DNA from: Trinickia dinghuensis
GTDB taxonomy: Bacteria; Pseudomonadota; Gammaproteobacteria; Burkholderiales; Burkholderiaceae
DNA: 32,000 nt
Reading direction: 5' to 3'
Assembly (NCBI RefSeq): GCF_003367175.1
Contig: NZ_QRGA01000013.1
Span: 32,230-64,229 of the forward strand
A program made the translations under genes and the position numbers. The notes beneath the pieces were generated by a model that saw nothing but the letters and a program-made list of their open reading frames with translations, did no database searches and was not told the DNA's origin. Of the stretch, positions 11,498 to 30,061 are shown one piece after another (position 1 is the stretch's first letter; each line of letters opens with the position of its first letter).

Positions 11498-12844
11498 CTA
11501 AATCTTTTGCACCTGAAGGAGCAGCAAGATTTCCGTCTTGCCCGTGGACACCGTATGGCCGGATGCCCAACGCGGCAGGAACGACAAGCCGGAGTTGGCA
11601 TGCGTCGCTTGATCCTGCGTCAAACCGCCTATAAGCAACACGTCGCCATCGGCCAGGCTGAAAGAGCTTTCAACCTTTCGCGTGTTCTTCGTCGGCGAAT
11701 TGTTCACGCCCGTCGTTGTATTCACGAAGCTACTGATTTCCTCGACGAGGTGCAGGTCGATCGCATCGCGCTTCACAACCGGCTTGACCTGAAAAATCAC
11801 GCCCGCGTCCTCGTACTGGATGCTCTGAACCGGCGCCGCCGTTGAACTGGGGTAGGACACGGAGCCAATCACCGGCACCGACTCCCCGACGTTAAGACTC
11901 GCCGTATCGCCCGACGCAACGCGCAAATTCGGCGAGGTTAGGACCTTGAACCTCGAATCGCTGTTCAGCGCCGACAGCGCAGCACTAAAACCGCCCGCGC
12001 TCAGCCTGATCGCGTTATCGGTTGACTTGATGCTGCCGATGTTCAGCGAAGCCCCTAGACGCCCGCCTAGGATGCTCAACGCGAGTTGAAACGCCGAGTT
12101 GTTATCCGACGTATCCGTCACCTCATACACCCACGCGCGCACCGCGACATTGCTAACCGGCGTGTCGAGCTGCGGCAATAGCTTTTTCAACATCGCCACT
12201 TCACCGGCCGAGCCAACGAACACGAGTTCATCGGCCGACTGATCGACAAGGCTTGCCGCCGACGTCGCGGGCACATCGCTCGCCACCTTGGCACCTTCCG
12301 GCGCCGACACGGGCCGATTCTCGGTAAAGCGGCCGCTGAACAGCGGTCCCACGATGCGCGACAGATAGTCAGCATCCCGATACCTCGGCGAATACACGAA
12401 TGTCTGCCGGTCGCTTTCATCGTTTGCGTGATCCGACTTAGATACGTACGTCACCCCACCGCGAACCGTCACCGAGTAGCCCAGCGACCCCAGGAAATCA
12501 GACAGGAACGAGCGCACGTCACCCTGTGCCTTGTCGAAGCGAAACGACACCGGCCGCGTATCCGTCAACACGTCAGGATCGAGGACATACGGCGCGTGAA
12601 GCAAATCCGCATAGATCAGGTCTACGACTTGTGCGACGGGCACAAAGCGCAGATCGATACGAGAGCCTGTAAAGCGCGGAAGCGCCGACATGATCGGGCG
12701 ATCAGGGGCCTTTGCGACGGGCACGCTCGCCGACGTCTGAACCATCCCCGGAGGAAGCGGAGGAAAACCCGGACTGCCGACCGACATATCCGATGCTCGA
12801 GCAACGCACGACACCCAAAGAAGGAGCAACGCGAACCGTTTCAT
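11498..12844 (-). CDS. Phage-encoded secretin (pIV-like, GspD/PulD family)
   Basis: Start at the internal ATG 12844 (MKRFALLLLWVSCVARA signal peptide), which forms an ATGA overlap with the Zot stop. The C-terminal secretin core reads FKVLTSPNLRVASGDTASLNVGESVPV...IQYEDAGVIFQVKP...VLLIGGLTQDQ. Confidence 0.9.
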   Translation of the reverse strand: MKRFALLLLWVSCVARASDMSVGSPGFPPLPPGMVQTSASVPVAKAPDRPIMSALPRFTGSRIDLRFVPVAQVVDLIYADLLHAPYVLDPDVLTDTRPVSFRFDKAQGDVRSFLSDFLGSLGYSVTVRGGVTYVSKSDHANDESDRQTFVYSPRYRDADYLSRIVGPLFSGRFTENRPVSAPEGAKVASDVPATSAASLVDQSADELVFVGSAGEVAMLKKLLPQLDTPVSNVAVRAWVYEVTDTSDNNSAFQLALSILGGRLGASLNIGSIKSTDNAIRLSAGGFSAALSALNSDSRFKVLTSPNLRVASGDTASLNVGESVPVIGSVSYPSSTAAPVQSIQYEDAGVIFQVKPVVKRDAIDLHLVEEISSFVNTTTGVNNSPTKNTRKVESSFSLADGDVLLIGGLTQDQATHANSGLSFLPRWASGHTVSTGKTEILLLLQVQKI

Positions 12845-13941
12845 TTCGCGCCCCCGAGCAGAGATTTCGACGACGGCGCCAAACCACCGACCTGGCCGGA
12901 CCACTCGGCCACACGATCACCTTCGATCATACCCACACGCTCTAAGCCGTTGCCCATGAACTCAGACGGCGACTCAGCCCTCAACCGGCCATCGCCATTA
13001 GCGAGCAGCACATACGACCGGCCATCGACGCTATAGGCACCTGCAACACGCCACGTAGACGAGGTTTGCGGCGCCTTATCACCGCCGGTCGATACCGCCG
13101 AGGCAGGGACCGCACCAGCCGCGCTCGCATGCCCGTTATGCGCCGCGACTTCACGCGCAGCAGCAGCCGTCCGGCTATGAAAGAAGCGCACGGCAAACCA
13201 CAGCCCGACGGCACCGAGCAGCAACACCGCGCCGACCAGAAACCAAAGCGACTTTCGCGCAAGAACGTTTTGCCGAGCGTCTACCGCACTCTCCTTGCCA
13301 GACGCGCCCGCATAGCTCTTGTACAGCGGAAAAATCTCAGCCTTGTACTTACGAACAAACGTGCCCGTTCTGTTGCCGGCCGTTTGCTTCCACGTCTCGT
13401 ACATTTCGACCCGGTAGGTCTTCGCCAGCCCGAGGCTCTTGAGCTTGACCATGCGAAACGACAACTCGACGACCGCCTTAATCGAGCGATGCAGATCGGC
13501 AATGGTCTGGATCATGAGCACCACGTCGCACGCAACACCCGTTTCTTCATGCACGAAGTGCCGATGCATCCGGAAGAACGCCATGTGTTCTTTCGAGATT
13601 TTTTGATCGGTGGCCCATAGCTTCCATGCTTCGTCGATCACGAGCAGATCGCCCGGTAGAACGAAGCCAGGCGTAACGGTAGCGCCCCCGGCTCCCTCGA
13701 CCTCGACCGGGAAAAAGCCGTCCTGTTTCAGGTCATCGGTGCGCACATGGACGATGCGACCAAGCCGAGCAAGCGGAACGTTCCGCTTTTCGTGCACGTA
13801 GGCGTGTATCAGATCTTCGTTGACACCATCGACGTTCGTCACGACTCGGCGACCGGCCGCAACAGCATCGAGCAATGGACCCGACACCACCTCGTACGAC
13901 TTGCCCGAACCCATCACGCCGCAGTAAGCATTAATTGACAT
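12841..13941 (-). CDS. zot: Zot-like assembly ATPase (pI homologue)
   Basis: Start at ATG 13941 gives MSINAYCGVMGSGKSYEVV (Walker A). Walker B is LLVIDEAW. A TM segment (LWFLVGAVLLLGAVGLWFAV) follows the ATPase domain, as in the Zot/pI family. Confidence 0.9.
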   Translation of the reverse strand: MSINAYCGVMGSGKSYEVVSGPLLDAVAAGRRVVTNVDGVNEDLIHAYVHEKRNVPLARLGRIVHVRTDDLKQDGFFPVEVEGAGGATVTPGFVLPGDLLVIDEAWKLWATDQKISKEHMAFFRMHRHFVHEETGVACDVVLMIQTIADLHRSIKAVVELSFRMVKLKSLGLAKTYRVEMYETWKQTAGNRTGTFVRKYKAEIFPLYKSYAGASGKESAVDARQNVLARKSLWFLVGAVLLLGAVGLWFAVRFFHSRTAAAAREVAAHNGHASAAGAVPASAVSTGGDKAPQTSSTWRVAGAYSVDGRSYVLLANGDGRLRAESPSEFMGNGLERVGMIEGDRVAEWSGQVGGLAPSSKSLLGGAK

Positions 13942-14033
13942 CTTCCGGTCCCTGGCGAAACCAACGCACCGCAAAACGTGCCCACACCGCGAGCACGAGC
14001 ACGACAACGGACACCGCTAGCGGCCCCACGGCA

Positions 14034-14327
14034 TCACCCAATAACCGGTATGCGCCGGATGATGAAGCGCGTAGCGAACGCTGCGACGATCGCGGGCGCC
14101 CCGTAGCTAAACCCGAACAGATCGAGGAAGTACCACACGTCGGAACCGACGCCACCGAACGCCCCGGCAAGCGATGCCGCACTCGGCAAAATGCCAGCAC
14201 TTTGCAGCACAGAGATAAATTCGGTCGTCACGAACCACATGGCGAAGTACGCAAAAAACTTCGCGATGATCGAGCGAAAGACGAAGCCGAGAACGACGTT
14301 AAACGCGCTAAGCAGAATGCCGAACAT
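14034..14327 (-). CDS. pVI-like minor coat/membrane protein (DUF2523-like)
   Basis: 97 aa, highly hydrophobic (MFGILLSAFNVVLGFVFRSIIAKFFAYFAMWFV...). GAGGTG RBS. Its position between the pIII-like and Zot genes is the conserved inovirus position. Confidence 0.7.
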   Translation of the reverse strand: MFGILLSAFNVVLGFVFRSIIAKFFAYFAMWFVTTEFISVLQSAGILPSAASLAGAFGGVGSDVWYFLDLFGFSYGAPAIVAAFATRFIIRRIPVIG

Positions 14328-14338
14328 GATCAGTCACC

Positions 14339-15709
14339 TCACGCCGTCAAGACGACCAACAGGGCCGCAACCGTGAATGCAGCGACAAAGAACCCGTGTA
14401 TCTCATCGCGGTTTTGCTCTAGCAGATCGCACTGCGACGTGAACGTGTACGTCTCGCCCCACAGCTGGAACGAAGGCTCCGGGCACGCCGACGTATGAGC
14501 AGGCACCGCCCACGAGCGCAGATCAGGCAACAAGCCCAGAATGGGCGCAAGGATTTGCGCAGCCGTGGGCGTCGCTTCCAACCCAGGCGCACCGATACCC
14601 GGATCCGGGCCAAGGTTGATTTCGGCACCACTGCCCGGATTGGTCGCAACTGGGACCGACGAAGCCGGGTTCGACGTGGACGGAACCGACGTAGCGAACG
14701 GCGCAGAACTACTCGCACCCGACAAGCTACCGGCGCCACTCACCGCGCTACCGACAGTTGGCGCAGACGTGCCAAGTTGATCCTCGACGGACGACGCCTC
14801 ACCGGCCGTCGCAGGAGCGTTCACGGGGAAAGGAAGGCCCGCGTAGCCCTCGCCCTGGGCCGCTTGGCCCCACAGTGCATTGACCGTCGCCGCAAGCACT
14901 TGCGCATTCAACACGTCGGGATCGTCAGCCGCAGGCGTAGCAGCCGCAGCAGCCATCACGGATTCAGTCACCGGCGGAGGCGGACTATAGGACGCGCACG
15001 AGCCATTGACGATGATCCCCGACGAGCACGCATTGCCGGACCAAGCACCAGTGCCGCTACTCGTCACGTTCTGGACGTCCGTTTCCTGTCCTCCCTGCGG
15101 AAGCGTAATGTCGAAACTACACGAGCCAGATGACGAGCTACCCACAACCCACGTATAGCCATTAGTACCGTTCTCCTTCTGTGCAAACGCCTGACATGCG
15201 GCAGCGACCGACGAACCGCACGCAGAACCGGGGCCGGTCTCGGTGTTATTCCCAACGCAAAAATACTGCTGCGGAGCGGCTAACGCGGGATAGGGCGACG
15301 AACCACCAGCCCCGGAAACCGTAACCGATCCATCACTATTCGACTGCCACTGCTGAAGCGACCCGTTACCCAACGACGTCGGCACCGCGAGCAATGCACC
15401 ACCGGCAGCGACCGCCGCTACCGCAATCCACGGCACCGCCCCGACAGCGATTCCCGCACCGGCCGCTATCGTCGCAGCAGCAGCCGCAGCAGCCTCACCA
15501 ATGGCCGCAACCGTCTCGGCGATACGCGGATCGGCCGGAGAGAAGCCGTTAGCCGCGGCGACCGCAGCGACCACGCCACCAATCGCCATACCCATCGACG
15601 GATACGACGTTGAGGAAGACGCCGCATAGACGACACGCGGAGGCGCCCACACCAAAGCGCCATAGAGCAGCGCGGCCCCGCAGAACGCGGACAATCGAAA
15701 CCGTTGCAT
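14339..15709 (-). CDS. pIII-like adsorption/minor coat protein
   Basis: Start at ATG 15709 (GGGGGTGAG RBS) gives the signal peptide MQRFRLSAFCGAALLYGALVWAPPRVVYA/A. The protein has Gly/Ser/Ala-rich linkers, Cys-containing globular segments and a C-terminal anchor FFVAAFTVAALLVVLTA. It sits immediately after the major coat gene. Confidence 0.7.
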   Translation of the reverse strand: MQRFRLSAFCGAALLYGALVWAPPRVVYAASSSTSYPSMGMAIGGVVAAVAAANGFSPADPRIAETVAAIGEAAAAAAATIAAGAGIAVGAVPWIAVAAVAAGGALLAVPTSLGNGSLQQWQSNSDGSVTVSGAGGSSPYPALAAPQQYFCVGNNTETGPGSACGSSVAAACQAFAQKENGTNGYTWVVGSSSSGSCSFDITLPQGGQETDVQNVTSSGTGAWSGNACSSGIIVNGSCASYSPPPPVTESVMAAAAATPAADDPDVLNAQVLAATVNALWGQAAQGEGYAGLPFPVNAPATAGEASSVEDQLGTSAPTVGSAVSGAGSLSGASSSAPFATSVPSTSNPASSVPVATNPGSGAEINLGPDPGIGAPGLEATPTAAQILAPILGLLPDLRSWAVPAHTSACPEPSFQLWGETYTFTSQCDLLEQNRDEIHGFFVAAFTVAALLVVLTA

Positions 15710-15819
15710 GCTCACCCCCGCATACCTTGAACGACCGCCCAGGCTGACAACAGCCCCCATGCGAACATCGCCAAATACCACGCAGTGTTTGCGTCGATCA
15801 TCACCACCCCCGCCTCAAG

Positions 15820-15847
15820 AAAAAAGGGCGAGCACCAGGCCCGCCCC
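15820..15847 (-). terminator. Weak rho-independent terminator after the major coat gene
   Basis: The minus strand shows GGGCG...CGCCC (5-bp stem, 11-nt loop) followed by T6, about 24 nt downstream of the coat stop. The position matches the post-gVIII terminator of Ff-type phages. Confidence 0.4.
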
Positions 15848-15870
15848 ACCCAAGCGAAGCACCGCGACCG

Positions 15871-16128
15871 CTACGCGCTCCGGATCATACGAAGGACGAT
15901 CTTCGCGCCCTTGATCGCGACGTACAGCAGCACGAGCGAAGCAGCCACCGCCATCACCGCCGTGATCGTCGTCGAAAAACTCACCGACGAAGTCAGGCTC
16001 GTGTAGTCGACGCCGGACGCCTGCGCGTGCGACACCAACGGCGTAGCCGAAACGGCAGCGACCACAGGAGCCGCCGCAACACGCAGCGCCTTCGAAACAC
16101 CCGCACCCATCTTTTGCAGCAAACGCAT
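15871..16128 (-). CDS. Major coat protein (pVIII-like)
   Basis: ATG 16128 with AGGAG 5 nt upstream. Signal peptide MRLLQKMGAGVSKALRVAAAPVVAAVSATPLVSHA/Q. The 50-aa mature part has an acidic/polar N-terminus (QASGVDYTSL), a hydrophobic core (ITAVMAVAASLVLLYVAI) and a basic C-terminus (KGAKIVLRMIRSA). Confidence 0.8.
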   Translation of the reverse strand: MRLLQKMGAGVSKALRVAAAPVVAAVSATPLVSHAQASGVDYTSLTSSVSFSTTITAVMAVAASLVLLYVAIKGAKIVLRMIRSA

Positions 16129-16173
16129 ATGCACTCCTAGCAAGAGAAACCGGGAAGCGCCCGGCTCGCATCA

Positions 16174-16458
16174 CTACCCCCGCCGAATGAATTCGACGAG
16201 CGCACCAATCCCGCGTGTTACGAAATACAGCCCGACAACAAAACAAAATGCGAGGCCCCAAAATCCGGCCGCTTGCGTGTAGTCAAACGGTGTTGTTTCC
16301 GCCGAGTTATCGACAAGCGCCATGTGCATGACACCAAGCGTTCCTTGCGTGCCATCGCTCGCGGTGCAAGCCACCGAATGACCGCTTATCCCGACCGCGC
16401 CTACGCCAGACGCGCCAGAACTACTCACGCACGCCGCTACATCGATACCCAGGCTCAT
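16174..16458 (-). CDS. Small membrane protein (possible minor coat protein)
   Basis: 94 aa with a C-terminal coat-like layout DNSAETTPFDYTQAAGFWGLAFCFVVGLYFVTRGIGALVEFIRRG. ATGA overlap with the upstream small ORF. Confidence 0.6.
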   Translation of the reverse strand: MSLGIDVAACVSSSGASGVGAVGISGHSVACTASDGTQGTLGVMHMALVDNSAETTPFDYTQAAGFWGLAFCFVVGLYFVTRGIGALVEFIRRG

Positions 16459-16607
16459 TGATCGACGCCTCCACGATCCGCACCACGCTTAGCACCGCGC
16501 ATGACCAGCGAAACGACACCGAGGACACAGCCGACAACGCCCACCATCGTCAGCGCCACCAAGCAGTCGGCGATAAGATCGAGCACATCAAACGGACAAC
16601 TCAGCAT
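16455..16607 (-). CDS. 50-aa single-TM protein (possible pVII/pIX analogue), absent from the ORF track
   Basis: The minus strand reads ATG at 16607 preceded by GGGGGAGG. Translation: MLSCPFDVLDLIADCLVALTMVGVVGCVLGVVSLVMRGAKRGADRGGVDQ*. Its stop overlaps the next start (ATGA at 16455-16458). Confidence 0.5.
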   Translation of the reverse strand: MLSCPFDVLDLIADCLVALTMVGVVGCVLGVVSLVMRGAKRGADRGGVDQ

Positions 16608-16616
16608 CGCCTCCCC

Positions 16617-16823
16617 CTAGTGCAGCATCCGGCCCACGAACACGACCGGAACCACATCGAACGGACCATCGCAGTGATCGACCCCGGCTTGCGTCGCTTC
16701 TTCCGCATCGCTGAACCCGCCCGCCTCACGAAACCGACACGTAAAGCCCACGTCGCCATCGACCGGACACAGGAACTCGCCGCTCGACAAGTCCTGAACC
16801 ACGTACACCACGGCCCCGCTCAC
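16617..16823 (-). CDS. Hypothetical small acidic protein
   Basis: 68 aa. It starts 2 nt after the stop of the pV-like gene and has good G/C third-position bias. No family recognised. Confidence 0.5.
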   Translation of the reverse strand: MSGAVVYVVQDLSSGEFLCPVDGDVGFTCRFREAGGFSDAEEATQAGVDHCDGPFDVVPVVFVGRMLH

Positions 16824-16825
16824 GA

Positions 16826-17137
16826 TCAGCCCTTAGGAGAAGCCGCCGAAACCTTCGTCGGCTTGAGGGCGTTCATCACCGTCTTCTGGGTCTTGCCGTT
16901 CGTGACGATTTCGAACTCGGCGACGGCCTCAAACGGAAACGGCAAGTGCTTGTATTTCTGGAACTCTTCAGCCGCACCGAGCGTGAACTCGCCGACCGCA
17001 AAGCCCTTCGCCGTGCCCTTCGACTCATCGAGGGGCGTCTCGGTGTAGACCTTCGTGCTATCGAACGTCTGGCCGTTGTCCATCGTGCCCTTGCTCGCCT
17101 TCATGCCCAGCACCTTCACGTTGCTTTCGAACTTCAT
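16826..17137 (-). CDS. Putative ssDNA-binding protein (pV-like)
   Basis: Internal ATG 17137 with GGGAG 6 nt upstream gives 103 aa, MKFESNVKVLGMKASKGTMDNGQTFDSTKVYTETPLDE.... The beta-rich composition and the position directly after rep fit pV analogues. Its start overlaps the last 80 nt of rep. Confidence 0.5.
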   Translation of the reverse strand: MKFESNVKVLGMKASKGTMDNGQTFDSTKVYTETPLDESKGTAKGFAVGEFTLGAAEEFQKYKHLPFPFEAVAEFEIVTNGKTQKTVMNALKPTKVSAASPKG

Positions 17138-18407
17138 TGCTTGCTCCCGTGTAATCCATGGCCGGATGAAAGACCGCGTCCTCTGCCCAGCCGTCATCAG
17201 AGGGGTCTAAATCGTTGAATGCACACGGTGTCGCGCGCTGATGTACTGGCGACTCGCACACTTCGTAATCGGGAACCTTGAGCCGTTCGGGCCACTCGCC
17301 GGACGTGCTTGTGATTGCTTCGAGAAGCGCCTCGTCGCCGATCAGCGGACGCAGCACAGCGAAATACTTGCCGTACGAAATGCGGATGTTCTTAACGCTC
17401 GCATCGACGTTGATCTCAGCGGCTTTGCGCTTGACCTCGACACGTTGCGGTGTGCGCGCTTGCTCAAAGAAGCGCAGGCACGGATAGGCGCCCACGAAAT
17501 AGCCGGATGGATCGAGCAGCACATCGAGCGGAATCACGCGCTTGTCGTTGCGTAGCTCAACCTCGAAGCGCACCCACGGCGACGTTTCGTCACCCTGTTC
17601 CATGCCCTTTTCGTAGACGCGGCACATCTTCCCGTTCTTGCGTCGGCCGACGTACAAGCTCCGGCCCTTGCCGCTCGGGTTGCGCCAGTCGCCGCGATGC
17701 TCGTGACTAGGGGCACGCCCAGAGCACGAGAACAGCCCGTCGTCATACCAGTCGTCTGCCTGATCGACCGTGTATTCGCCTTCCATGCAGTCATGCGCCA
17801 GGTCTACCCGCGTGATCGTCGGACGGCCGGCCGTCTGTGAGAGAAAGTCGTAGAGCCGACCCTCCCAGCCCGGTTTGGCCGCAAGGCAACCGTGCCCCGT
17901 CAGGTTCACGAGCATCGTTCCACGTTGGCTCGATCCGCCGATAGCGACGTAGCCGTACGCGTCGCCTAGCTCCCACGCGCTCAAGTAAAAATCGCGTTTG
18001 ACTTGCAGGTCCTTCGTAACGCCGAAGCCGAAAATCTCCGTCAGCACCTGGCTTGCTTCACACACAAATTCGTCATCGCCGACCAGTTGCCGACCCGCCG
18101 TCTTGCAGAACGTCTGCTCGCTGACCGTGAAGCGCAGCGTATCGATCATCGCCACCTGATCGCCGCAGGGAACCCGGACCGCAATCGTCTTGATCTCGCC
18201 CGATTCGGTAACGACGATCTGCAACCGTTCCAGCTTCGCGAGCGTCGCTCTGTTCGTATCCCCCCTGTTAGTACGGGGGGGGCATTCGCGCGGAGCGCCG
18301 CCGCGTCCGTCCTCGACGCTCCGGGCGGGCGCGGCGTCGCGCCTTGCGGTAGGGCGATTAGGACTCCTAAGAGTCTCCGAAATGGCAGCGTTCTTGAGTT
18401 TGCCCAT
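17058..18407 (-). CDS. Rolling-circle replication initiation protein (Rep_trans / RstA-like)
   Basis: 449 aa. IDTLRFTV, TRVDLAHDC and GRSLYVGRRKNGKMCRVYEKG...WVRFEVELRN match my memory of the Rep_trans signature found in CTXphi RstA and RSS/Cf-type phages. The N-terminal 60 aa or so is low complexity, so the true start could be downstream. Confidence 0.85.
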   Translation of the reverse strand: MGKLKNAAISETLRSPNRPTARRDAAPARSVEDGRGGAPRECPPRTNRGDTNRATLAKLERLQIVVTESGEIKTIAVRVPCGDQVAMIDTLRFTVSEQTFCKTAGRQLVGDDEFVCEASQVLTEIFGFGVTKDLQVKRDFYLSAWELGDAYGYVAIGGSSQRGTMLVNLTGHGCLAAKPGWEGRLYDFLSQTAGRPTITRVDLAHDCMEGEYTVDQADDWYDDGLFSCSGRAPSHEHRGDWRNPSGKGRSLYVGRRKNGKMCRVYEKGMEQGDETSPWVRFEVELRNDKRVIPLDVLLDPSGYFVGAYPCLRFFEQARTPQRVEVKRKAAEINVDASVKNIRISYGKYFAVLRPLIGDEALLEAITSTSGEWPERLKVPDYEVCESPVHQRATPCAFNDLDPSDDGWAEDAVFHPAMDYTGASNEVRKQREGAGHEGEQGHDGQRPDVR

Positions 18408-21594: not shown

Positions 21595-22764
21595 CTACCG
21601 CTTCGACTTTGCCCTCGGCTTTTCGGCGAGCGCTTCCCGCAGGTGACCTGCCGTCGTTTGCCTAATCCACTCGGCGTACGCCTCGTCTTCTATGCGGTAG
21701 CGTCCGCGCTCAAGCCGTGTCACTACATTCCCGTCCTGGAGTCTTCGCAAGGCGTGGCTAACTGTGCTCGGTGTGGTCGGGCTGCCGGCAAGCGTGCTGA
21801 GATACCGAAGCCCCGCAACCGAATGCAGGTCCGAATCGCCACTCGCGACCAAAATGAGCACCGCCCGATCAGCAGCACCGGAGCCGGTCCACTGCCTCAG
21901 GAAGTGTTGATCGGAGAACACGGTCGCTTTCGTGTGTTCTAGCGCAGCATCGACACCCTCGAGCTGGTAAAGCACGAATCGCTCGATAAACCGCTTAAAG
22001 AACTCCGGCGTCCGGTGCAGTGCTTCGAACGCACGCTTGCCGTCCGTCAGCGTCAAGGTGTTCCGTGCAAGGCTGTTGGTCAATTCCACGGTGAACGCAA
22101 CAAACTCGTCGCCAAGCAGCGGAAACGGTTCTAGGGGCGCCCAGTTATAGAACGGCTCCGAAGAGCGGGCAAACATATCCCGCAGCGTTGTTTCCGAGCT
22201 ACCGGCAAACACCACCTTGATGCGGTCTTTGCGGATGTCTAGCGCTGCCCGAAGGGCATGAGCGAATACGCTGTGCACTTCCTTCGCAAGCACCTGCGCT
22301 TCGTCGATGACGAGAATCAACGGCTTCTTCTGACGATCGAGCTGGCGCAGTACCTCCCGCATCGTTGCGGCGCTGTCCGCGTCGAGTTGCGCCAAATCTG
22401 CCTCGATCGAGCCTTCCGCCAAGCCAGGCAGCTTCGCGCTCGCCTTGAGTTTTTTGACTGGCTTTCCCAACGCGGTCATCACCGCCCGGAACCCTCGCGG
22501 TTCGAGCGCCTGGGCCAAGGCAGAGACAATCGCAATGTCCGGCGTGCTCGTGTCCCAAAGATTCGTATAGGCGACCAGGTATTCCTTCTCGACTGCAGCC
22601 GGCAGCAGATCCTTGCACAGAAATTCGGTCTTACCCATCCTGCGGCGCGCGAATAGCCCCCGCGCCGCAGTCAGGCCAAGCGCGAATGCATTCAAATAGG
22701 CTTCCGCCAACTTAGGCCGGGCAAAGTGCCACGCATCGACGGCCGTTTTCTCGTGAATTCTCAT
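21595..22764 (-). CDS. Orphan ATP-binding protein (archaeal-type AAA ATPase fold with a C-terminal wHTH)
   Basis: P-loop-like ARRRMGKTEF, Walker B LILVIDEAQ and a C-terminal wHTH-like TVSHALRRLQDGNVVTRLERGRYRI. The track start at 22767 is GTG and the adjacent ATG is at 22764. Confidence 0.8.
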   Translation of the reverse strand: MRIHEKTAVDAWHFARPKLAEAYLNAFALGLTAARGLFARRRMGKTEFLCKDLLPAAVEKEYLVAYTNLWDTSTPDIAIVSALAQALEPRGFRAVMTALGKPVKKLKASAKLPGLAEGSIEADLAQLDADSAATMREVLRQLDRQKKPLILVIDEAQVLAKEVHSVFAHALRAALDIRKDRIKVVFAGSSETTLRDMFARSSEPFYNWAPLEPFPLLGDEFVAFTVELTNSLARNTLTLTDGKRAFEALHRTPEFFKRFIERFVLYQLEGVDAALEHTKATVFSDQHFLRQWTGSGAADRAVLILVASGDSDLHSVAGLRYLSTLAGSPTTPSTVSHALRRLQDGNVVTRLERGRYRIEDEAYAEWIRQTTAGHLREALAEKPRAKSKR

Positions 22765-22815
22765 CACATTTGGGAATTCTCAAATCTCGTGGGAATTCAT
22801 GATACAACAGCTCAC
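22735..22815 (+). repeat. 81-bp direct repeat, copy 1 (covers the ATPase start and upstream region)
   Basis: Aligns with 23881-23961 with about 10 mismatches. It contains three GAATTC-centred dyads at 22755, 22774 and 22793, spaced 19 bp apart. Confidence 0.8.
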
Positions 22816-23961: not shown

Positions 23962-24026
23962 GAAACCGGCCTTGGCGCCGCTGTCAGCACATGCGTCTGC
24001 GCGTGGTAGCACGTGTTATATGATGC

Positions 24027-24051
24027 TATAATTGATGCAACTTGGCATCAA
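24027..24051 (+). promoter_or_regulatory. Candidate vapBC promoter -10 element and operator
   Basis: Extended -10 TGCTATAAT (TATAAT at 24027-24032) overlaps the 7-bp inverted repeat TTGATGC (24032-24038) / GCATCAA (24045-24051). This lies just upstream of the GGAG RBS and the vapB ATG at 24064. Confidence 0.4.
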
Positions 24052-24063
24052 GCTGGAGTCGAA

Positions 24064-24270
24064 ATGCGAACCACCGTTACGATCGACGACAACCTCTATG
24101 AGCGCGCGCTTGAGCTTGCCGACCCAGGCATGGACAAAGCCGACCTTTTCCGCGTGGCCATGCAGATGTTTGTTCGGGTTCAGGCCGGTAAGCGTCTGGC
24201 GGCTTTGGGCGGCACCGAGCCCGCTATGTCCGACATCCCCCGGCGCCGGTCGGAGCCTACGGCTCGATGA
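24064..24270 (+). CDS. vapB: Type II antitoxin, VapB family
   Basis: 68 aa from ATG 24064, [19 protein letters not shown]..., a typical VapB-type N-terminus. ATGA overlap with the PIN toxin gene. Confidence 0.85.
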
Positions 24271-24647
24271 GCGTCCTGATCGACACATCCGTCTGGGTTG
24301 ATCATTTCCGTCGCACAAACGCGAGACTTGTCCAACTGCTCACCGGCGACGAGGCGCTCACGCACCCGGTCGTGCTTGTCGAACTCGCCTGCGGCACTCC
24401 TCCTGCGCCCCGGGTACGGACGCTCCACGATATCGCGCTGCTGCAACATGCGACGCACGCGACATGGACCGAGGTGATGGAGTTGATCGAGGCGAGACGA
24501 TTTTACGGTCGCGGCTGTGGCAGCAGCGACCTTACGCTGCTCGCGTCAACCTTGATGACTCCCGGTGCATTACTTTGGACCTCGGACAAACGGCTCGCCC
24601 AGCTCGCCAGTGAATCAGGCGTCGCGTATATGCATGATGTCCACTAG
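24267..24647 (+). CDS. vapC: Type II toxin, PIN-domain ribonuclease VapC
   Basis: 126 aa with [14 protein letters not shown] (first acidic residue), VLVELACG and SSDLTLLAS, the PIN acidic-residue contexts. Confidence 0.9.
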
Positions 24648-25600: not shown

Positions 25601-26458
25601 CTAAGCTATCGCAACCAGCCCCACTTCAAGTGCAAACGGCAGCCACGTCAGCAACTGCGCCCCGATCTCACCCGGCCCCCGCCCGAGTTCGCCGGCCACG
25701 CCGGCGATCAGTTCGCGCACGCCGATCCCCTTTTCCCCCAGCAGGTTCAGGAACGAAAACGACCATGGCTCGAGACGATGCAGCCGCACGCGATAGTGAC
25801 TGCGCGCCACGGCAACGAGCGTGTCCCCCGACGTGGGCGTGCCGAACGGCTGATCGGCCGCCACCGCCGCGATCAGACCGGAAAAATCAAAATCGAGCAG
25901 CAAAAGCCGCAGCGATTCAGGCGCGCGCAACCTCAGTGCGTATAACAAAACGAGATCGAACGAAGCAGGAAACAGCGGACGTTCGCTCCCTTCGACACCG
26001 GGCGCACGCTCCACTTCGGCGAATGCGCGCTCGAGCCGCGCGAGGCTCGCCGGCAGCGCTTCGAGCGTGCCGCGTCCATCGTTGGGCCGCGGTCGAGCCG
26101 CCTCGAGAAAATCGGCGAAGCCCGCGCCCAGATCGAACAGCGTATAGGACGAAGGCGGCTTGGCGCCGAGATACGCGCCGGCAAAGAGATCGAAAACCTG
26201 ATCGCCGACGAAACGCCTCAGCACCGGAAATTCCGCGCGCAGGCATTCGATGAGGCGCATGCGATAGCTGACCACATAGATCTCGAGGCGCTGCCGAGCC
26301 GGCAGTCTTTCCGTGCCGACCACCGCCTGATCGCAATCGATCCCGTATTGGGCCGCCATGCTCAGCGCATCGTCGAGGGTCCAGGACTCTCCCGAAACCA
26401 CATCCTGCATCCAGTGCTGCAGCGTGGCGAGATCGCGTTCGTTCACGTTATCGGTCAA
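25601..26458 (-). CDS. DUF2063-family protein (HvfC/BufC-type MNIO partner)
   Basis: 285 aa, immediately (2 nt) downstream of the DUF692 gene. The N-terminal LATLQHWMQDVV pattern and the overall size fit DUF2063 partner proteins. The track start at 26458 is TTG, and GTG at 26446 is an alternative. Confidence 0.8.
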   Translation of the reverse strand: MTDNVNERDLATLQHWMQDVVSGESWTLDDALSMAAQYGIDCDQAVVGTERLPARQRLEIYVVSYRMRLIECLRAEFPVLRRFVGDQVFDLFAGAYLGAKPPSSYTLFDLGAGFADFLEAARPRPNDGRGTLEALPASLARLERAFAEVERAPGVEGSERPLFPASFDLVLLYALRLRAPESLRLLLLDFDFSGLIAAVAADQPFGTPTSGDTLVAVARSHYRVRLHRLEPWSFSFLNLLGEKGIGVRELIAGVAGELGRGPGEIGAQLLTWLPFALEVGLVAIA

Positions 26459-26460
26459 AG

Positions 26461-27411
26461 TCAGCGGCTCAATTGAAATTCGACCGGCGTGGACAACGCC
26501 CCCGCCGCCACGGGGCGCACGTTGCCGGCGTCAGGCATCGCACCGCTTCTCGCCGCCTTCGCCTTGCCGAGTTCGCCGAGCAACTCGGCAAACGGCGGAA
26601 TGTTCGCGTCCCATTCGAGCAGCGTCGCCACACCCGACGTGCGTGCCTGTGCAAGCGCGTAAAGCGGCCACACGGCGGCCGGCACGGGCTGATCGTGCGT
26701 GTCGACGAGATGCGTGCCGCAATCGCTCGGGCCCGCGAGATGAATCTGCACGATGTTTTCGGCCGGCAACTGCTCGATATAGGCGACGGGATCGAAGCCG
26801 TGATTCGTGGCGCTGACGTAGACGTTGTTGACGTCGAGCAGCAAGCCGCAGCCCGTCGCGTCCGCCAGCCGCGCGAGAAATTCCGACTCCGACATCTGCG
26901 ACGCATGAAACGTCAGATAGCTGCTCGGATTCTCGAGAATCAGCGCGCGCCCGAGATAGTCCTGCACGGCGCGAACGCGATCGGCCACATGCGCCAGACT
27001 TTGCTCGGTCAACGGCATCGGCAGCAGGTCATGCGTATTGCGGCCGTTGACGCCCGTCCAGCAGAGATGATCGGAAATCCAGGCGGGGCGAACGCGCTCG
27101 GCCAATTCGCGAAGCTTGCGCAGATAGTCGCGATCGAGCGGCGCGACACTGCCGATCGACAGCGATACGCCGTGCATGACGATCGGCCGATGCGCCGCAA
27201 TTCGCTCGAGCACATGGGCCGCGTAGCCGTGGTGATCGAGAAAGTTCTCGCTGATGATCTCGAACCAGTCGACGCCCCACTCCGAAGGCGCCGTCGCCAT
27301 CAAATGCGGAAAATGGACGTGCCGTAGCCCGACCCCGTCACCGAGATTCGGCAGACCGAGGCGACAAACCGGTGCGCTTGCCGCCTCGTACGAAACAGCC
27401 TCCACGGTCAC
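26461..27411 (-). CDS. DUF692-family multinuclear non-heme iron oxidative enzyme (MNIO; MbnB/HvfB/BufB-like)
   Basis: 316 aa with [60 protein letters not shown] and VDTHD, the TIM-barrel metal-ligand contexts I recognise from DUF692. The GTG start overlaps the upstream stop (GTGA at 27408-27411). Confidence 0.9.
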
Positions 27412-29702
27412 GTCGACGGCGGCATGGCAATGCGCAGCGGGTTCGCCGGCAGTTCGGGCGGCACTTCCTGCTGTCTTGCCTGCAGCACGCGCTTGTAGGC
27501 CTCGTAGGCGATCTTGTCGATGCGCTCACCCTTCTCGAAGGCGATCGTCGCGTCCGTGCCTTCGAGCGGCACTGCCTGCCAACGCGGTTGAAAGCCGCCG
27601 GTCTTCTTATAGTCGAACAACTGCATCGTGCCGCCGACCGGGAAGCGCTGGGAAGCCGAAATCGGCACGGCACAGCCGCCGAAGCCCTGGCAGCGGTTGT
27701 CGCCGGGCGCGCTGAAGACCGGCAGTGGATTGCAGCCGTTGCCGAACGTACGCGTCTGCAGCGCCGTGCTCGCACTCGTGCTCGTGCTGCAATTGCCGCC
27801 GCCCGAAACTTTCTGCACGAAGCCGCATCCGCCCTGCGCGTTGCATTGATTCGAGCCGCGGCAGCTGTGGAAAACGCCCACCTGGGCGCAATCGTTCGGC
27901 GCCTGCGCGGCACTGAGGTCGAGCCCTTGGCACGCGTGATACAGCGTCTTCGAATTGAGCGGTTCCAGTCCGATCGACAAATCGGGGGCCTTCCCAAAGA
28001 CGGCCCAGCAGATCGCCATGCGATCGCCCGAGCCCACCATCGACGGGAACGGGAACTGCACGGGATTCTGTGCCTGGGCGGCCGCGTTCCAAAAGTCGTC
28101 GAGCACCGTCAGCACGCCCGCGATCGAACCGACCGCGGCTTGGCTCAGCGTCGGGTAATAGCGTGCCGGCTCGGCGCGCAGCGTGTTGAGCGCCTCGGCA
28201 ACCTCATCCGGCGAAGGAATGGGATCGTCGGCCGGACGCACATAATCGGGCTTCTTCAAATCGTTGCCCTGCCAGCCGCAGCCCTCCTTCGACCGTTTGG
28301 CCCACCAGTCGGTCCACGTCCGCACGCCGCCCTGCGCGAACAGATTCCGGATATCCCTGTTGAAGCGCTCGAAGTGATCGGCTTCATCGTGATCGGTACG
28401 CGCCGCCGCATCGGCCGAAGGCACGAGCACGCCGCTATCGTTGAAGCTCGGATAGTCCGATTCGAGCGCAACGGGAGACGGGCGATACTCCTTCTTCACG
28501 GCCTGCAAACCGACCTCTCTCGCACGCTGCAGCAACTGCTGCTTGCGATCGCCGCCTTGCAGCAGCCCATGCGGCTGAGCCGTCAGCTCGGCAAGCACCG
28601 GGAAAGCGTCTTCGGGCAAGATCTCGACGCCGAGCGCATCCTTGAAAACTTCTTGCAGGTTCTCGTAATTGCGCGCCCCGATCTCCCCGCCGAGATGATC
28701 GCTGAGCGCCGTCACGCCCTTTTCCACGCGCACGCGAACCCGCTCTTTGATCGTGCTGCCTTCGCCCTGATCGGTGATGGCGCTCATCATATTGAGCATC
28801 TGCGCTTTGGCGATGTCCTTGTACGTGAGCGCGATCGTCGTCTCGAAGCCCATGAACTCGCGCATCGGATGGCCCGAGCCCGAGAAGTTGTTGAACAGGT
28901 CGTTCTGCTGCCCGTTGGGATTGAACACGCTGTCCCACAACGTCGAGCCGTCCTCGTAGACCACGTTCACATACTTGCTGTAACACTGGTACATCCAGCC
29001 GATCGACCCGAATTGCGGCAGCGGCTCGCCCGCCTCCCAGGGGCCGCGCGCACCGCCCGGCTTCCAAATATCGTCGAACGGGGCGGTCGGGAAATACTCG
29101 GCGCGGTACGGTTCGAGCACGTCCGCGCGCGCGTCGGCGTCGTCCCGCTCGATCGCGCAGAAGAGCCAGAGTTTCTCTTCATTGAGCGCGCCGACGTCGA
29201 CGTCGGCCGCCAGCCCCTGCTCCCTGCGCTCCTGATAGCTTTGCGTATGGGCCAGATCGATGATGTTCGGAATGCGCGTCTTGCCGTGGCCGAAGCATTT
29301 CCATGCATGCGTTTCCGGATCGACGAGCGAGCACGTGCTGTATTTCGGCGGCGAATTCGGATCGCTGACGGCCGTCGCCATATTCGAGGCGAGCTGCAGA
29401 TGCAGCATTTCGTCGATGAAGACGGAAAAGAGAATATTGAACGCCTGCTCTTCGTTGTTCGCGGGCGTGCGCACCGGCTTCGCGCCGGGCCACAGGCGGC
29501 CCTTGTAGAAATCGAGATTCTTTCCTGTAATGGCATGCATGCCGTAAATCGAATACAGGCTCGTCATATACAGCGGAATCGTGAAAAGCTCAACCTCGAG
29601 CGCGGCTTGGGCAATGGCCCGCAGGGCGGCGATGTCGGTTTCCTTATGGGCGGGATTCCGCTTGACTGTTACGGTTCCGTGACTGCTTTCGATGCTTTCC
29701 AT
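27408..29702 (-). CDS. Large ferritin-like-domain protein with a C-terminal Cys-rich bufferin/HvfA-like block
   Basis: ATG 29702 with AGGAGA 6 nt upstream gives 764 aa. Ferritin-like helices: [51 protein letters not shown]. No signal peptide is visible. The C-terminal block contains [17 protein letters not shown] and [12 protein letters not shown]. The 774-aa track ORF adds 10 Arg-rich codons upstream. Confidence 0.85.
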
Positions 29703-30061
29703 GCGTGGTCTCCTACGTATCGGCGAGCGCATGGGAATGTCGTTCGCCGGCTGTGGGGGGGAAGCGGCTGCTGAACAAGCCGTCTTTTTTTATCAAAACA
29801 GGCCGAACGACGAGCAACGGGAGCAGACCGGCTCTGCTGCGCCGGTCTTACGTCTGATGAAACATACGGTAGCCATATCGGCGTGTCAAGCGGTGGGATG
29901 CACCCTCCGCTAGGTGGGCTTCCGCCAAATTCGCCTTGGGCGATGACGCTGCGAAGCAACCGCCGACCCCGATGTTGCGTAGTGTTGCGCTTGCCCCATG
30001 TCGGGTATGATCAGCCGATCTGCCGACAATCAATAATTAACGAAAAGAGGACGACACACGT

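Follow-up and report, generated by a model that had tools for sequence, protein, structure and literature searches.

Our analysis of a 32,000-nucleotide stretch of the Trinickia dinghuensis genome (contig NZ_QRGA01000013.1; hereafter the window) indicates that three adjacent genes on its minus strand, at 25601-29732, constitute a bufABC-type operon in which the position of bufA, the precursor gene, is occupied by the gene of a ferritin-like protein with a cysteine-rich block in its C-terminal part. The product of this "A" gene is a 75-85 kDa cytoplasmic protein of the PF12902 family, in which a BufA2-related core lies between a helical body and a C-terminal domain. On comparative grounds we lean towards the view that the MNIO encoded by the operon modifies cysteines of the block in the full-length cytoplasmic protein, giving rise to a thiooxazole-based metal site, and by analogy with the bufferins the block is probably a protein-embedded bufferin core whose cysteines are converted to 5-thiooxazoles. 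We favor this reading because the gene sits in the precursor slot, the block is BufA2-like, the neighboring enzymes are of the BufB and BufC type, and no other substrate is encoded.

The translated 774-amino-acid (aa) open reading frame (ORF) is 100% identical to the T. dinghuensis "ferritin-like domain-containing protein"; NCBI places the start at M11 (29702), which gives 764 aa and shifts the residue numbers used here by 10 but otherwise changes nothing. Nucleotides 27663-27941 (minus strand) encode the 93 residues of the block, 598-690, which ends in GFGGCAVP. Of the 15 cysteines of the ORF, nine lie in the block, six in residues 1-597 and none in the last 84, and the hypergeometric probability of finding at least nine of 15 within 93 of 774 residues is ~1e-5. 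An earlier sequence-only reading had singled out this block, and its count of nine cysteines in residues 598-690 with six before them is exact, apart from a trivial one-residue offset in the string it quoted, which runs from L597 to I691. The ~85 cysteine-free residues that it placed after the block, the motifs CRGSNQC and GGC (the latter twice), and a Ser/Thr/Gly linker are all there as well, the linker being hypervariable in homologues.

Conservation of the cysteine pattern had been named beforehand as the test by which the idea might fail, and the pattern is conserved. Among 120 homologues (41-100% identity), each of the nine block cysteines is conserved to at least 96%, and in 85 diverse sequences from phyla that include Pseudomonadota, Bacteroidota, Acidobacteriota and Myxococcota, C601, C624, C630, C636, C648, C681 and C687 are essentially invariant, C681 and C687 being 100% conserved, while C615 is kept in 82-96% of sequences and C667 in ~73%. 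The cysteines are embedded in the conserved motifs H-x-C-Q-G, N-x-C-A, F-H-x-C-[KR], G-G-G-x-C and D-N-K-C, and two histidines of the block, H599 and H622, are invariant. The motifs fall into two clusters (Table 1). The first, H-x-C601-Q-G...N-x-C615-A...F-H-x-C624-[KR]-G-S-N-x-C630-x-A-Q-G-G-C636-G-F-V-Q...G-G-G-x-C648, is by sequence comparison the BufA2/BufA1-like portion of the block; the second reads P-x-D-N-[KR]-C681-x-x-F-G-G-C687-A-V-P-I-S-A-S-Q, and its [FL]GGCAVPIS was so specific that genomes could be scanned with it. A homologue in Pseudoalteromonas sp. NC201 (L006:1609-3936) lacks C615 and C667 and keeps the other seven cysteines together with the MNIO/DUF2063 pair; both cysteines are therefore dispensable for the system. 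Their joint absence there might suggest a C615-C667 disulfide, yet other sequences lose one of the two alone, and the idea is unsupported.

Could the enrichment be an artefact, due to chance or low complexity in a GC-rich genome? The region is rich in Gly, Ser and Ala, and the GC content does give long spurious ORFs, for example an 800-aa open frame at 27372-29774 (plus strand) antisense to the entire ferritin-like gene, as is common in DNA of high GC content; this frame is not a gene. However, the hypergeometric probability given above speaks against such an origin, and so does the invariance of seven cysteines and their surrounding motifs in proteins that are 36-40% identical overall and come from different phyla. 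This cross-phylum conservation refutes the artefact, to which we give practically no credence.

To place the block relative to the bufferins, reference BufA2 and BufA1 genes were recovered from plasmid records, their identity was confirmed by source names and NCBIfam, and family alignments were built. (In one reference locus, on an Asticcacaulis plasmid, L007:1141-7406, the two operons are adjacent and divergent, buf1 being DUF2282-MNIO-DUF2063-DoxX and buf2 BufA2-MNIO-DUF2063-sigma-NrsF-NrsF.) With hhalign, the block of the window subfamily aligns to BufA2 with a score of 28.5 (P 1.6e-4), over N-x-C-A...H-x-C-[KR]-G-x-N-x-C...G-F, and to BufA1 with a score of 25.0; none of 150 column shuffles reaches the real scores, the maxima being 21.1 for BufA2 and 19.3 for BufA1. 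The block of an MNIO-linked sister subfamily, which keeps Cys-II of BufA2 (C-Q-G-L-N-x-C-x-G), scores 44.1 against BufA2 (probability 94.6%, P 7e-8), and none of 100 shuffles comes up to that value (maximum 22.7). The NCBIfam BufA2 model (NF050166) is the only model that sister blocks match, at 18.0 and 15.4 bits (cut-off 60); a genuine BufA1 reaches 18.3 bits with the same model, level with the sister blocks, and the BufA2 positive control 83.8. The resemblance to BufA2 that had been noticed by eye is thus statistically real at the level of profile-profile comparison with shuffles, although the block itself reaches no BufA1, BufA2 or DUF2282 model. Of the repeat C-[KR]-G-x-N-x-C-[KR]-G-x-G-G-C, to which the sequence-only reading had likened the block, the part N-x-C-A...H-x-C-[KR]-G-x-N-x-C is homologous, whereas the actual BufA2 core, HCYGVNSCKGTADCATTxHxCKGxNxCKGHGF, has no G-G-C unit. 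The second cluster does not bear out as a bufferin unit, having at best a loose BufA2 counterpart (C-L-x-x-G-G). Judged by sequence, then, the block stands as a family of its own, a remote relative of BufA2 and BufA1 that belongs to neither.

The two genes that follow encode, as the sequence-only reading had claimed, a DUF692 and a DUF2063 protein. The GTG start of the MNIO gene overlaps the ferritin-like stop codon by 4 nucleotides (nt), and the DUF2063 gene begins 2 nt past the MNIO stop codon. The MNIO passes the NCBIfam equivalog MNIO_BufB (NF050167) with 352.5 bits against a cut-off of 310, as do all five other ferritin-linked MNIOs tested (336-361 bits), BufB1/B2 controls scoring 371-392. 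Across phyla, ferritin-linked MNIOs share 54-84% identity with one another and with the window enzyme, and 38-51% with four BufB1/BufB2 references, against which they form one clade, and 81 of 85 have an Ala after the catalytic Asp (motif LLEWD-A). A DUF2063 domain is present in 34 of 34 partner proteins of the family.

In a scan covering 185,579 species genomes we found 432 relatives, and the 80 best among them belong to alpha-, beta- and gamma-Pseudomonadota, Bacteroidota, Acidobacteriota, Myxococcota and Ignavibacteria. In 80 of 80 loci with at least 2 kb of downstream sequence, which represent six phylum-level groups, the MNIO gene comes directly after the ferritin-like gene and the DUF2063 gene comes next; beyond this three-gene unit the neighborhoods differ between loci. 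This gene order recurs in a highly divergent subfamily of 507-aa proteins (P0222) and in a variant whose gene is split (P0221). In one metagenomic lineage (L093:1367-3038; also L094 and L095) a 280-aa ferritin-like ORF overlaps a 294-aa Cys-block ORF, which is followed by the MNIO gene; the split is due either to a frameshift or to a two-gene form that occurs naturally. A search of 17,947 ORF segments with BufA1 and BufA2 hidden Markov models (HMMs) at --max sensitivity found no separate precursor in any ferritin-like locus; in the ranking by the BufA2 HMM the true bufferins come first, and the next 23 best segments are ferritin-like ORFs. A small Cys-rich ORF was also looked for upstream of the ferritin-like gene in the window, and none was found.

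The main rival to the modified-block reading takes the block for an unmodified, native domain of a ferritin-like enzyme, with a metal-binding or redox function (Zn, Fe-S, Cu-thiolate or disulfide); the MNIO and its DUF2063 partner would then act elsewhere, or the ferritin-like protein would serve them as an accessory factor, for instance in handling iron or oxygen. In its favor, the motifs are extremely rigid and include the invariant H599 and H622, the ferritin-like body is highly conserved and enzyme-like (ExxH, DQGEG), the protein is large and without a signal peptide, unlike known MNIO-PME1 substrates, and the window block has no HMM match to bufferin families. The synteny, on the other hand, speaks for a substrate: the gene holds the strictly conserved precursor position, and none of ~85 loci offers another candidate. 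The composition of 190 unique blocks points the same way. The CxxC and CxC pairs typical of Zn or Fe-S sites are absent from 189 of them (CC, CxC or CxxC occurs in just one), the number of cysteines per block, 7-15, shows no preference for even values (89 even against 101 odd), and the block is divided by the variable linker of 20-118 aa, itself with 1-8 cysteines; the dominant spacing is C-x5-C, with 582 instances, and the pattern of the window family is ~13,8,5,5,11,...,5. The block thus carries no classical Zn-ribbon, Fe-S or metallothionein signature, the zinc-binding alternative having been raised at the outset, and the block alone has no relevant match in Pfam, NCBIfam or PDB sequences.

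Structure prediction adds to this. In the AlphaFold2 (AF2) model of the full-length protein, with a mean predicted local distance difference test score (pLDDT) of 81.8 and a predicted template-modeling score of 0.87, and in a second model of the C-terminal 192 aa, the block has a pLDDT of 30-58 between confident flanking domains, whereas AF2 usually folds Cys-metal domains with confidence. Given also the significant similarity to BufA2, we regard the native-domain explanation as unlikely. We count the low pLDDT of the block beside confident domains in favor of its accessibility to the modifying enzymes.

What, then, weighs against modification of the block? Direct hhalign probabilities for the window subfamily are just 50% with BufA2 and 22% with BufA1, and the strong link of the window block to BufA2 is, on the sequence evidence, transitive, by way of the sister subfamily. 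BufA1, BufA2 and DUF2282 models give no match to the window block at E <=10, and an exhaustive profile search with the block over 1.84 billion proteins returned 111, nearly all of them members or fragments of the ferritin-like family and no bufferins. The C-terminal domain of RRE (RiPP recognition element; RiPP, a peptide made on ribosomes and modified after translation) type is weakly detectable in the DUF2063 partners: NGO1945_C matches the window partner at 19 bits (E 0.0019, cut-off 27) and 9 of 34 family partners at E <=0.01, and a profile of the DUF2063 family did not retrieve 3DEE among PDB sequences. The MNIO phylogeny includes only four reference BufB sequences. According to Antoine et al. 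2025, genuine DUF2063 partners go with signal-peptide precursors (PMC12452194), and here the Sec peptide is absent. Lastly, the modification is predicted from sequence, and the block, with its two invariant histidines, is more rigidly conserved than a typical RiPP core, so that a native metal-binding domain would also fit. Set against these points are the published facts that the precursor position is strictly conserved in bufABC operons (PMC12452194), that a signal peptide is unnecessary for recognition by BufB/BufC (PMC11626156), and that characterized MNIO-PME1 pairs and clusters install copper-binding 5-thiooxazoles (PMC13097082).

If the block is modified as we propose, the BufB-type MNIO and its DUF2063 partner would bind the flexible block of the newly made ferritin-like protein and oxidize several of its cysteines, by four electrons each, to 5-thiooxazoles, a reaction established for BufA1/BufA2 and for other MNIO-PME1 systems. 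The likeliest targets would be C615 (N-x-C-A), C624 (H-x-C-[KR]-G) and C630 (S-N-x-C), because these align with Cys-II and Cys-III of BufA1 and with Cys-III, Cys-IV and Cys-V of BufA2. C601 would correspond to Cys-I of bufferins, which stays unmodified, and the last bufferin cysteine may have its equivalent either in C648, judging by the BufA1 alignment, or in C681, whose motif resembles that of BufA2. The mature protein would carry a thiooxazole/His metal site of its own, the metal being most likely copper by analogy, which might either be sequestered in the cytoplasm or held by a set of ligands acting together with the ferritin-like domain.

The outcome could also be of another kind. The block may be an MNIO substrate with different chemistry (an oxazolone-thioamide, cross-links or beta-carbon excision) or with a role beyond copper buffering, for example as a cofactor for the ferritin-like domain or in handling iron or another metal. 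The enzymes form a clade of their own with the distinctive Ala after the catalytic Asp, a position that influences substrate selectivity in FonB and BufB2 (PMC13097082); a cytoplasmic location and fusion to a PF12902 domain related to oxidases of the VioB type misfit periplasmic copper buffering; and neither C636 nor the GGCAVPIS cluster has a clear bufferin counterpart. Yet the MNIOs exceed the BufB equivalog threshold, all characterized MNIO-PME1 pairs install 5-thiooxazoles (PMC13097082), and the sequence data do not discriminate between the chemistries, and we think a non-bufferin outcome distinctly improbable. A further proposal, which we put forward as tentative and somewhat doubtful, is that MNIO chemistry matures a cytoplasmic metalloprotein instead of yielding a secreted peptide metallophore: the loop that joins the ferritin-like body to the C-terminal domain would bear thiooxazoles, or some other product of the MNIO, as a protein-derived ligand set or cofactor that acts with the ferritin-like, VioB-related domain. 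Were this true, it would amount to a new class of post-translationally built metal center, in more than 400 bacterial species of several phyla.

PF12902 is the sole Pfam domain match of the ORF, and the matched region, roughly residues 40-330, carries the motifs ELFTIPLY, (D/Q)EMLHLQ (ExxH) and DQGEG. The family profile matches PDB entry 3hl1 (E 2.2e-9), whose hallmark motifs agree, and the same entry is the only one that Foldseek returns for the full-length model (probability 1.00, E 8e-7). This protein, CC_0557 of Caulobacter, is a stand-alone PF12902 protein of 317 aa and unknown function, without the Cys block. It is the best available template for VioB, to which PF12902 proteins are distantly related (PMC9705886). 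The helical body, residues ~27-580, is modeled with confidence (pLDDT above 90 over most of it), except for an insertion of ~100 aa at 58-68. Members of the family in Trinickia and Burkholderia, at 764-772 aa against 650-700 aa in most relatives, are ~100 aa longer; an extra helical segment with a pLDDT of 58-68 lies at residues ~328-410 (~28500-28750, minus strand), and the additional stretch looks like a lineage-specific insertion.

The C-terminal domain has a pLDDT of ~77-88 over residues ~690-769 in the full-length model, with ~69 in the last ~4 residues, and of ~77-87 (mean ~84) in the model of the C-terminal 192 aa, for which Foldseek finds no fold match in the PDB at E <=0.001. Its extreme C-terminus, L-R-[LI]-A-[FM]-P-P-S-T (27411-27440, minus strand), is invariant from Burkholderiaceae to Bacteroidota and Myxococcota, and could be a docking (follower) motif for an RRE-like partner or a sorting or degradation signal. 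At the other end, the N-termini of the family reach 22-31 aa before the first conserved helix, with a highest 12-residue mean hydropathy of at most 1.2, and no Sec signal peptide is found among them; these N-termini being short and non-hydrophobic, the proteins are therefore cytoplasmic. In this respect the likeness to a bufferin precursor, which the sequence-only reading had drawn, breaks down, since all described bufferins have such a peptide.

It is useful to compare the system with known ones. The closest is that of BufA2 (NF050166, BUF_6/12Cys; the precursors of "Cys-Lys" captophorins), which with BufB2 and BufC2 has the same order of precursor, MNIO and DUF2063. Common to both are an MNIO of BufB equivalog type, the order of core motifs H-x-C-[YQ]-G, D/N-x-C-A, H-x-C-[KR]-G-x-N-x-C and G-[FY], and the C-x5-C spacing with Lys/Arg-Gly following Cys. 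However, BufA2 is a periplasmic peptide of ~90 aa that carries a Sec signal peptide and precisely 6 (or 12) cysteines, whereas here the core occupies residues ~598-690 of a protein of 650-800 aa that has no signal peptide. The cysteine spacing of BufA2 is fixed at 5,5,6,5,12, while our family has 7-15 cysteines (nine in the window) and shares only the C-x5-C unit. Moreover, the window subfamily lacks Cys-II and has extra invariant cysteines at 636, 648, 681 and 687, and the block adds the hypervariable linker and the GGCAVPIS motif and scores below the cut-off of the BufA2 HMM.

For BufA1/DUF2282 (PF10048), the pattern C-x-G...N-D-C-A...H-S-C-x-G...G-x-C aligns with C601, C615, C624 and C648. 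The hhalign scores, 25.0 and 25.8, lie above all shuffles, yet the probability is 22-34%, and the block does not match Pfam DUF2282, which gives 71.6 bits with a BufA1 control. BufA1 has four cysteines and a signal peptide, and usually has DoxX and SigF/NrsF nearby; none of these features belongs to the window system, where no DoxX gene or SigF/NrsF pair lies around the operon and the next gene downstream is surE, on the opposite strand. Profiles of BufA2 and BufA1, like that of the block, match no PDB sequence, and there is therefore no bufferin structure for comparison of folds.

Fusions of a bufferin core to a larger metal-related protein do have precedents in Antoine et al. 2025 (Buf1|Cytochrom_C|FGE-sulfatase, MerC|Buf1, MerC|Buf2 and Buf_EGKCG|EF-hand), which support the idea that MNIOs can modify proteins (PMC12452194). 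Unlike the family described here, those fusions are exported or membrane-anchored, with a periplasmic bufferin domain that matches the Buf1 or Buf2 profile (PMC12452194). A cytoplasmic fusion to PF12902 is not mentioned in the main text of that paper or in the part of its supplements that we consulted (PMC12452194), nor do ferritin-like fusions appear in the text or the consulted supplements of the MNIO landscape, original bufferin and captophorin papers. The open-access literature yielded no link between PF12902 and MNIOs, and nothing relevant joining ferritin-like proteins with MNIO, DUF2063 or RiPP. Every described bufferin or captophorin precursor thus differs from ours, in which the Sec signal peptide is absent and the core lies inside a PF12902 protein.

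Under the current definition, bufferins and captophorins are small peptides, exported through Sec, that buffer periplasmic copper. Two rules are broken by the ferritin-like family, in which the pair of BufB/BufC type always accompanies a large cytoplasmic protein with a BufA2-related core, and not a signal-peptide precursor. If the core is indeed modified, MNIOs would act on folded proteins within the cell, thiooxazole metal sites would exist in the cytoplasm, and the uncharacterized PF12902 ferritin-like fold would gain a testable functional context. The three-gene system is compact and widespread, with 432 species-level genomes among Pseudomonadota, Bacteroidota, Acidobacteriota and Myxococcota.

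Table 1. Features of the ferritin-like operon and of the inovirus-like gene set in the window
Feature	Residues	Position	Strand	Basis or remark
Ferritin-like protein gene		27408..29732	minus	774-aa ORF, ATG at 29732
Pfam Ferritin-like, PF12902	42-327	28752..29609	minus	E 1.4e-12, 48.4 bits vs cut-off 22.3
Cys motif cluster 1	599-648	27789..27938	minus	conservation; hhalign vs BufA2/BufA1 with shuffle controls
Variable Gly/Ser/Thr/Pro linker, including semi-conserved C667	649-675	27708..27788	minus	
Cys motif cluster 2	676-695	27648..27707	minus	invariant across phyla
Cys-free C-terminal beta/alpha domain	696-774	27411..27647	minus	predicted (AF2)
BufB-type MNIO (DUF692, PF05114)		26461..27411	minus	PF05114 E 1.9e-104
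DUF2063 partner (PME-type-1-like, BufC/HvfC-like)		25601..26458	minus	PF09836 65.8 bits vs cut-off 27.2
Sigma-70-like promoter match, TTGACA-17-TATGTT		29861..29889	minus	~130 nt upstream of ATG; consensus match only
Secretin		11498-12904	minus	
Zot/pI-like ATPase		12841-14007	minus	
480-aa ORF		14339-15781	minus	no Pfam match
Rep_trans replication initiator		17058-18407	minus	

Elsewhere in the window, Rfam and tRNA scans were empty, and PADLOC gave no defense-system match among the three genes of the operon. A gene set like that of a filamentous phage (inovirus) lies at 11498-18407 on the minus strand (Table 1) and is probably an integrated prophage. A 390-aa ORF at 21595-22767 (minus strand) matches nothing in Pfam at E <=1e-5; its PADLOC matches, to Csa3 (E 2e-5) and mad8, are weak, and it may be an ATPase or a winged-helix regulator. 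Finally, just downstream of surE, the neighbor of the operon, an 85-aa ORF overlaps by 4 nt the gene of a 126-aa PIN-domain protein (24013-24647, plus strand), an arrangement that resembles a VapBC toxin-antitoxin pair.

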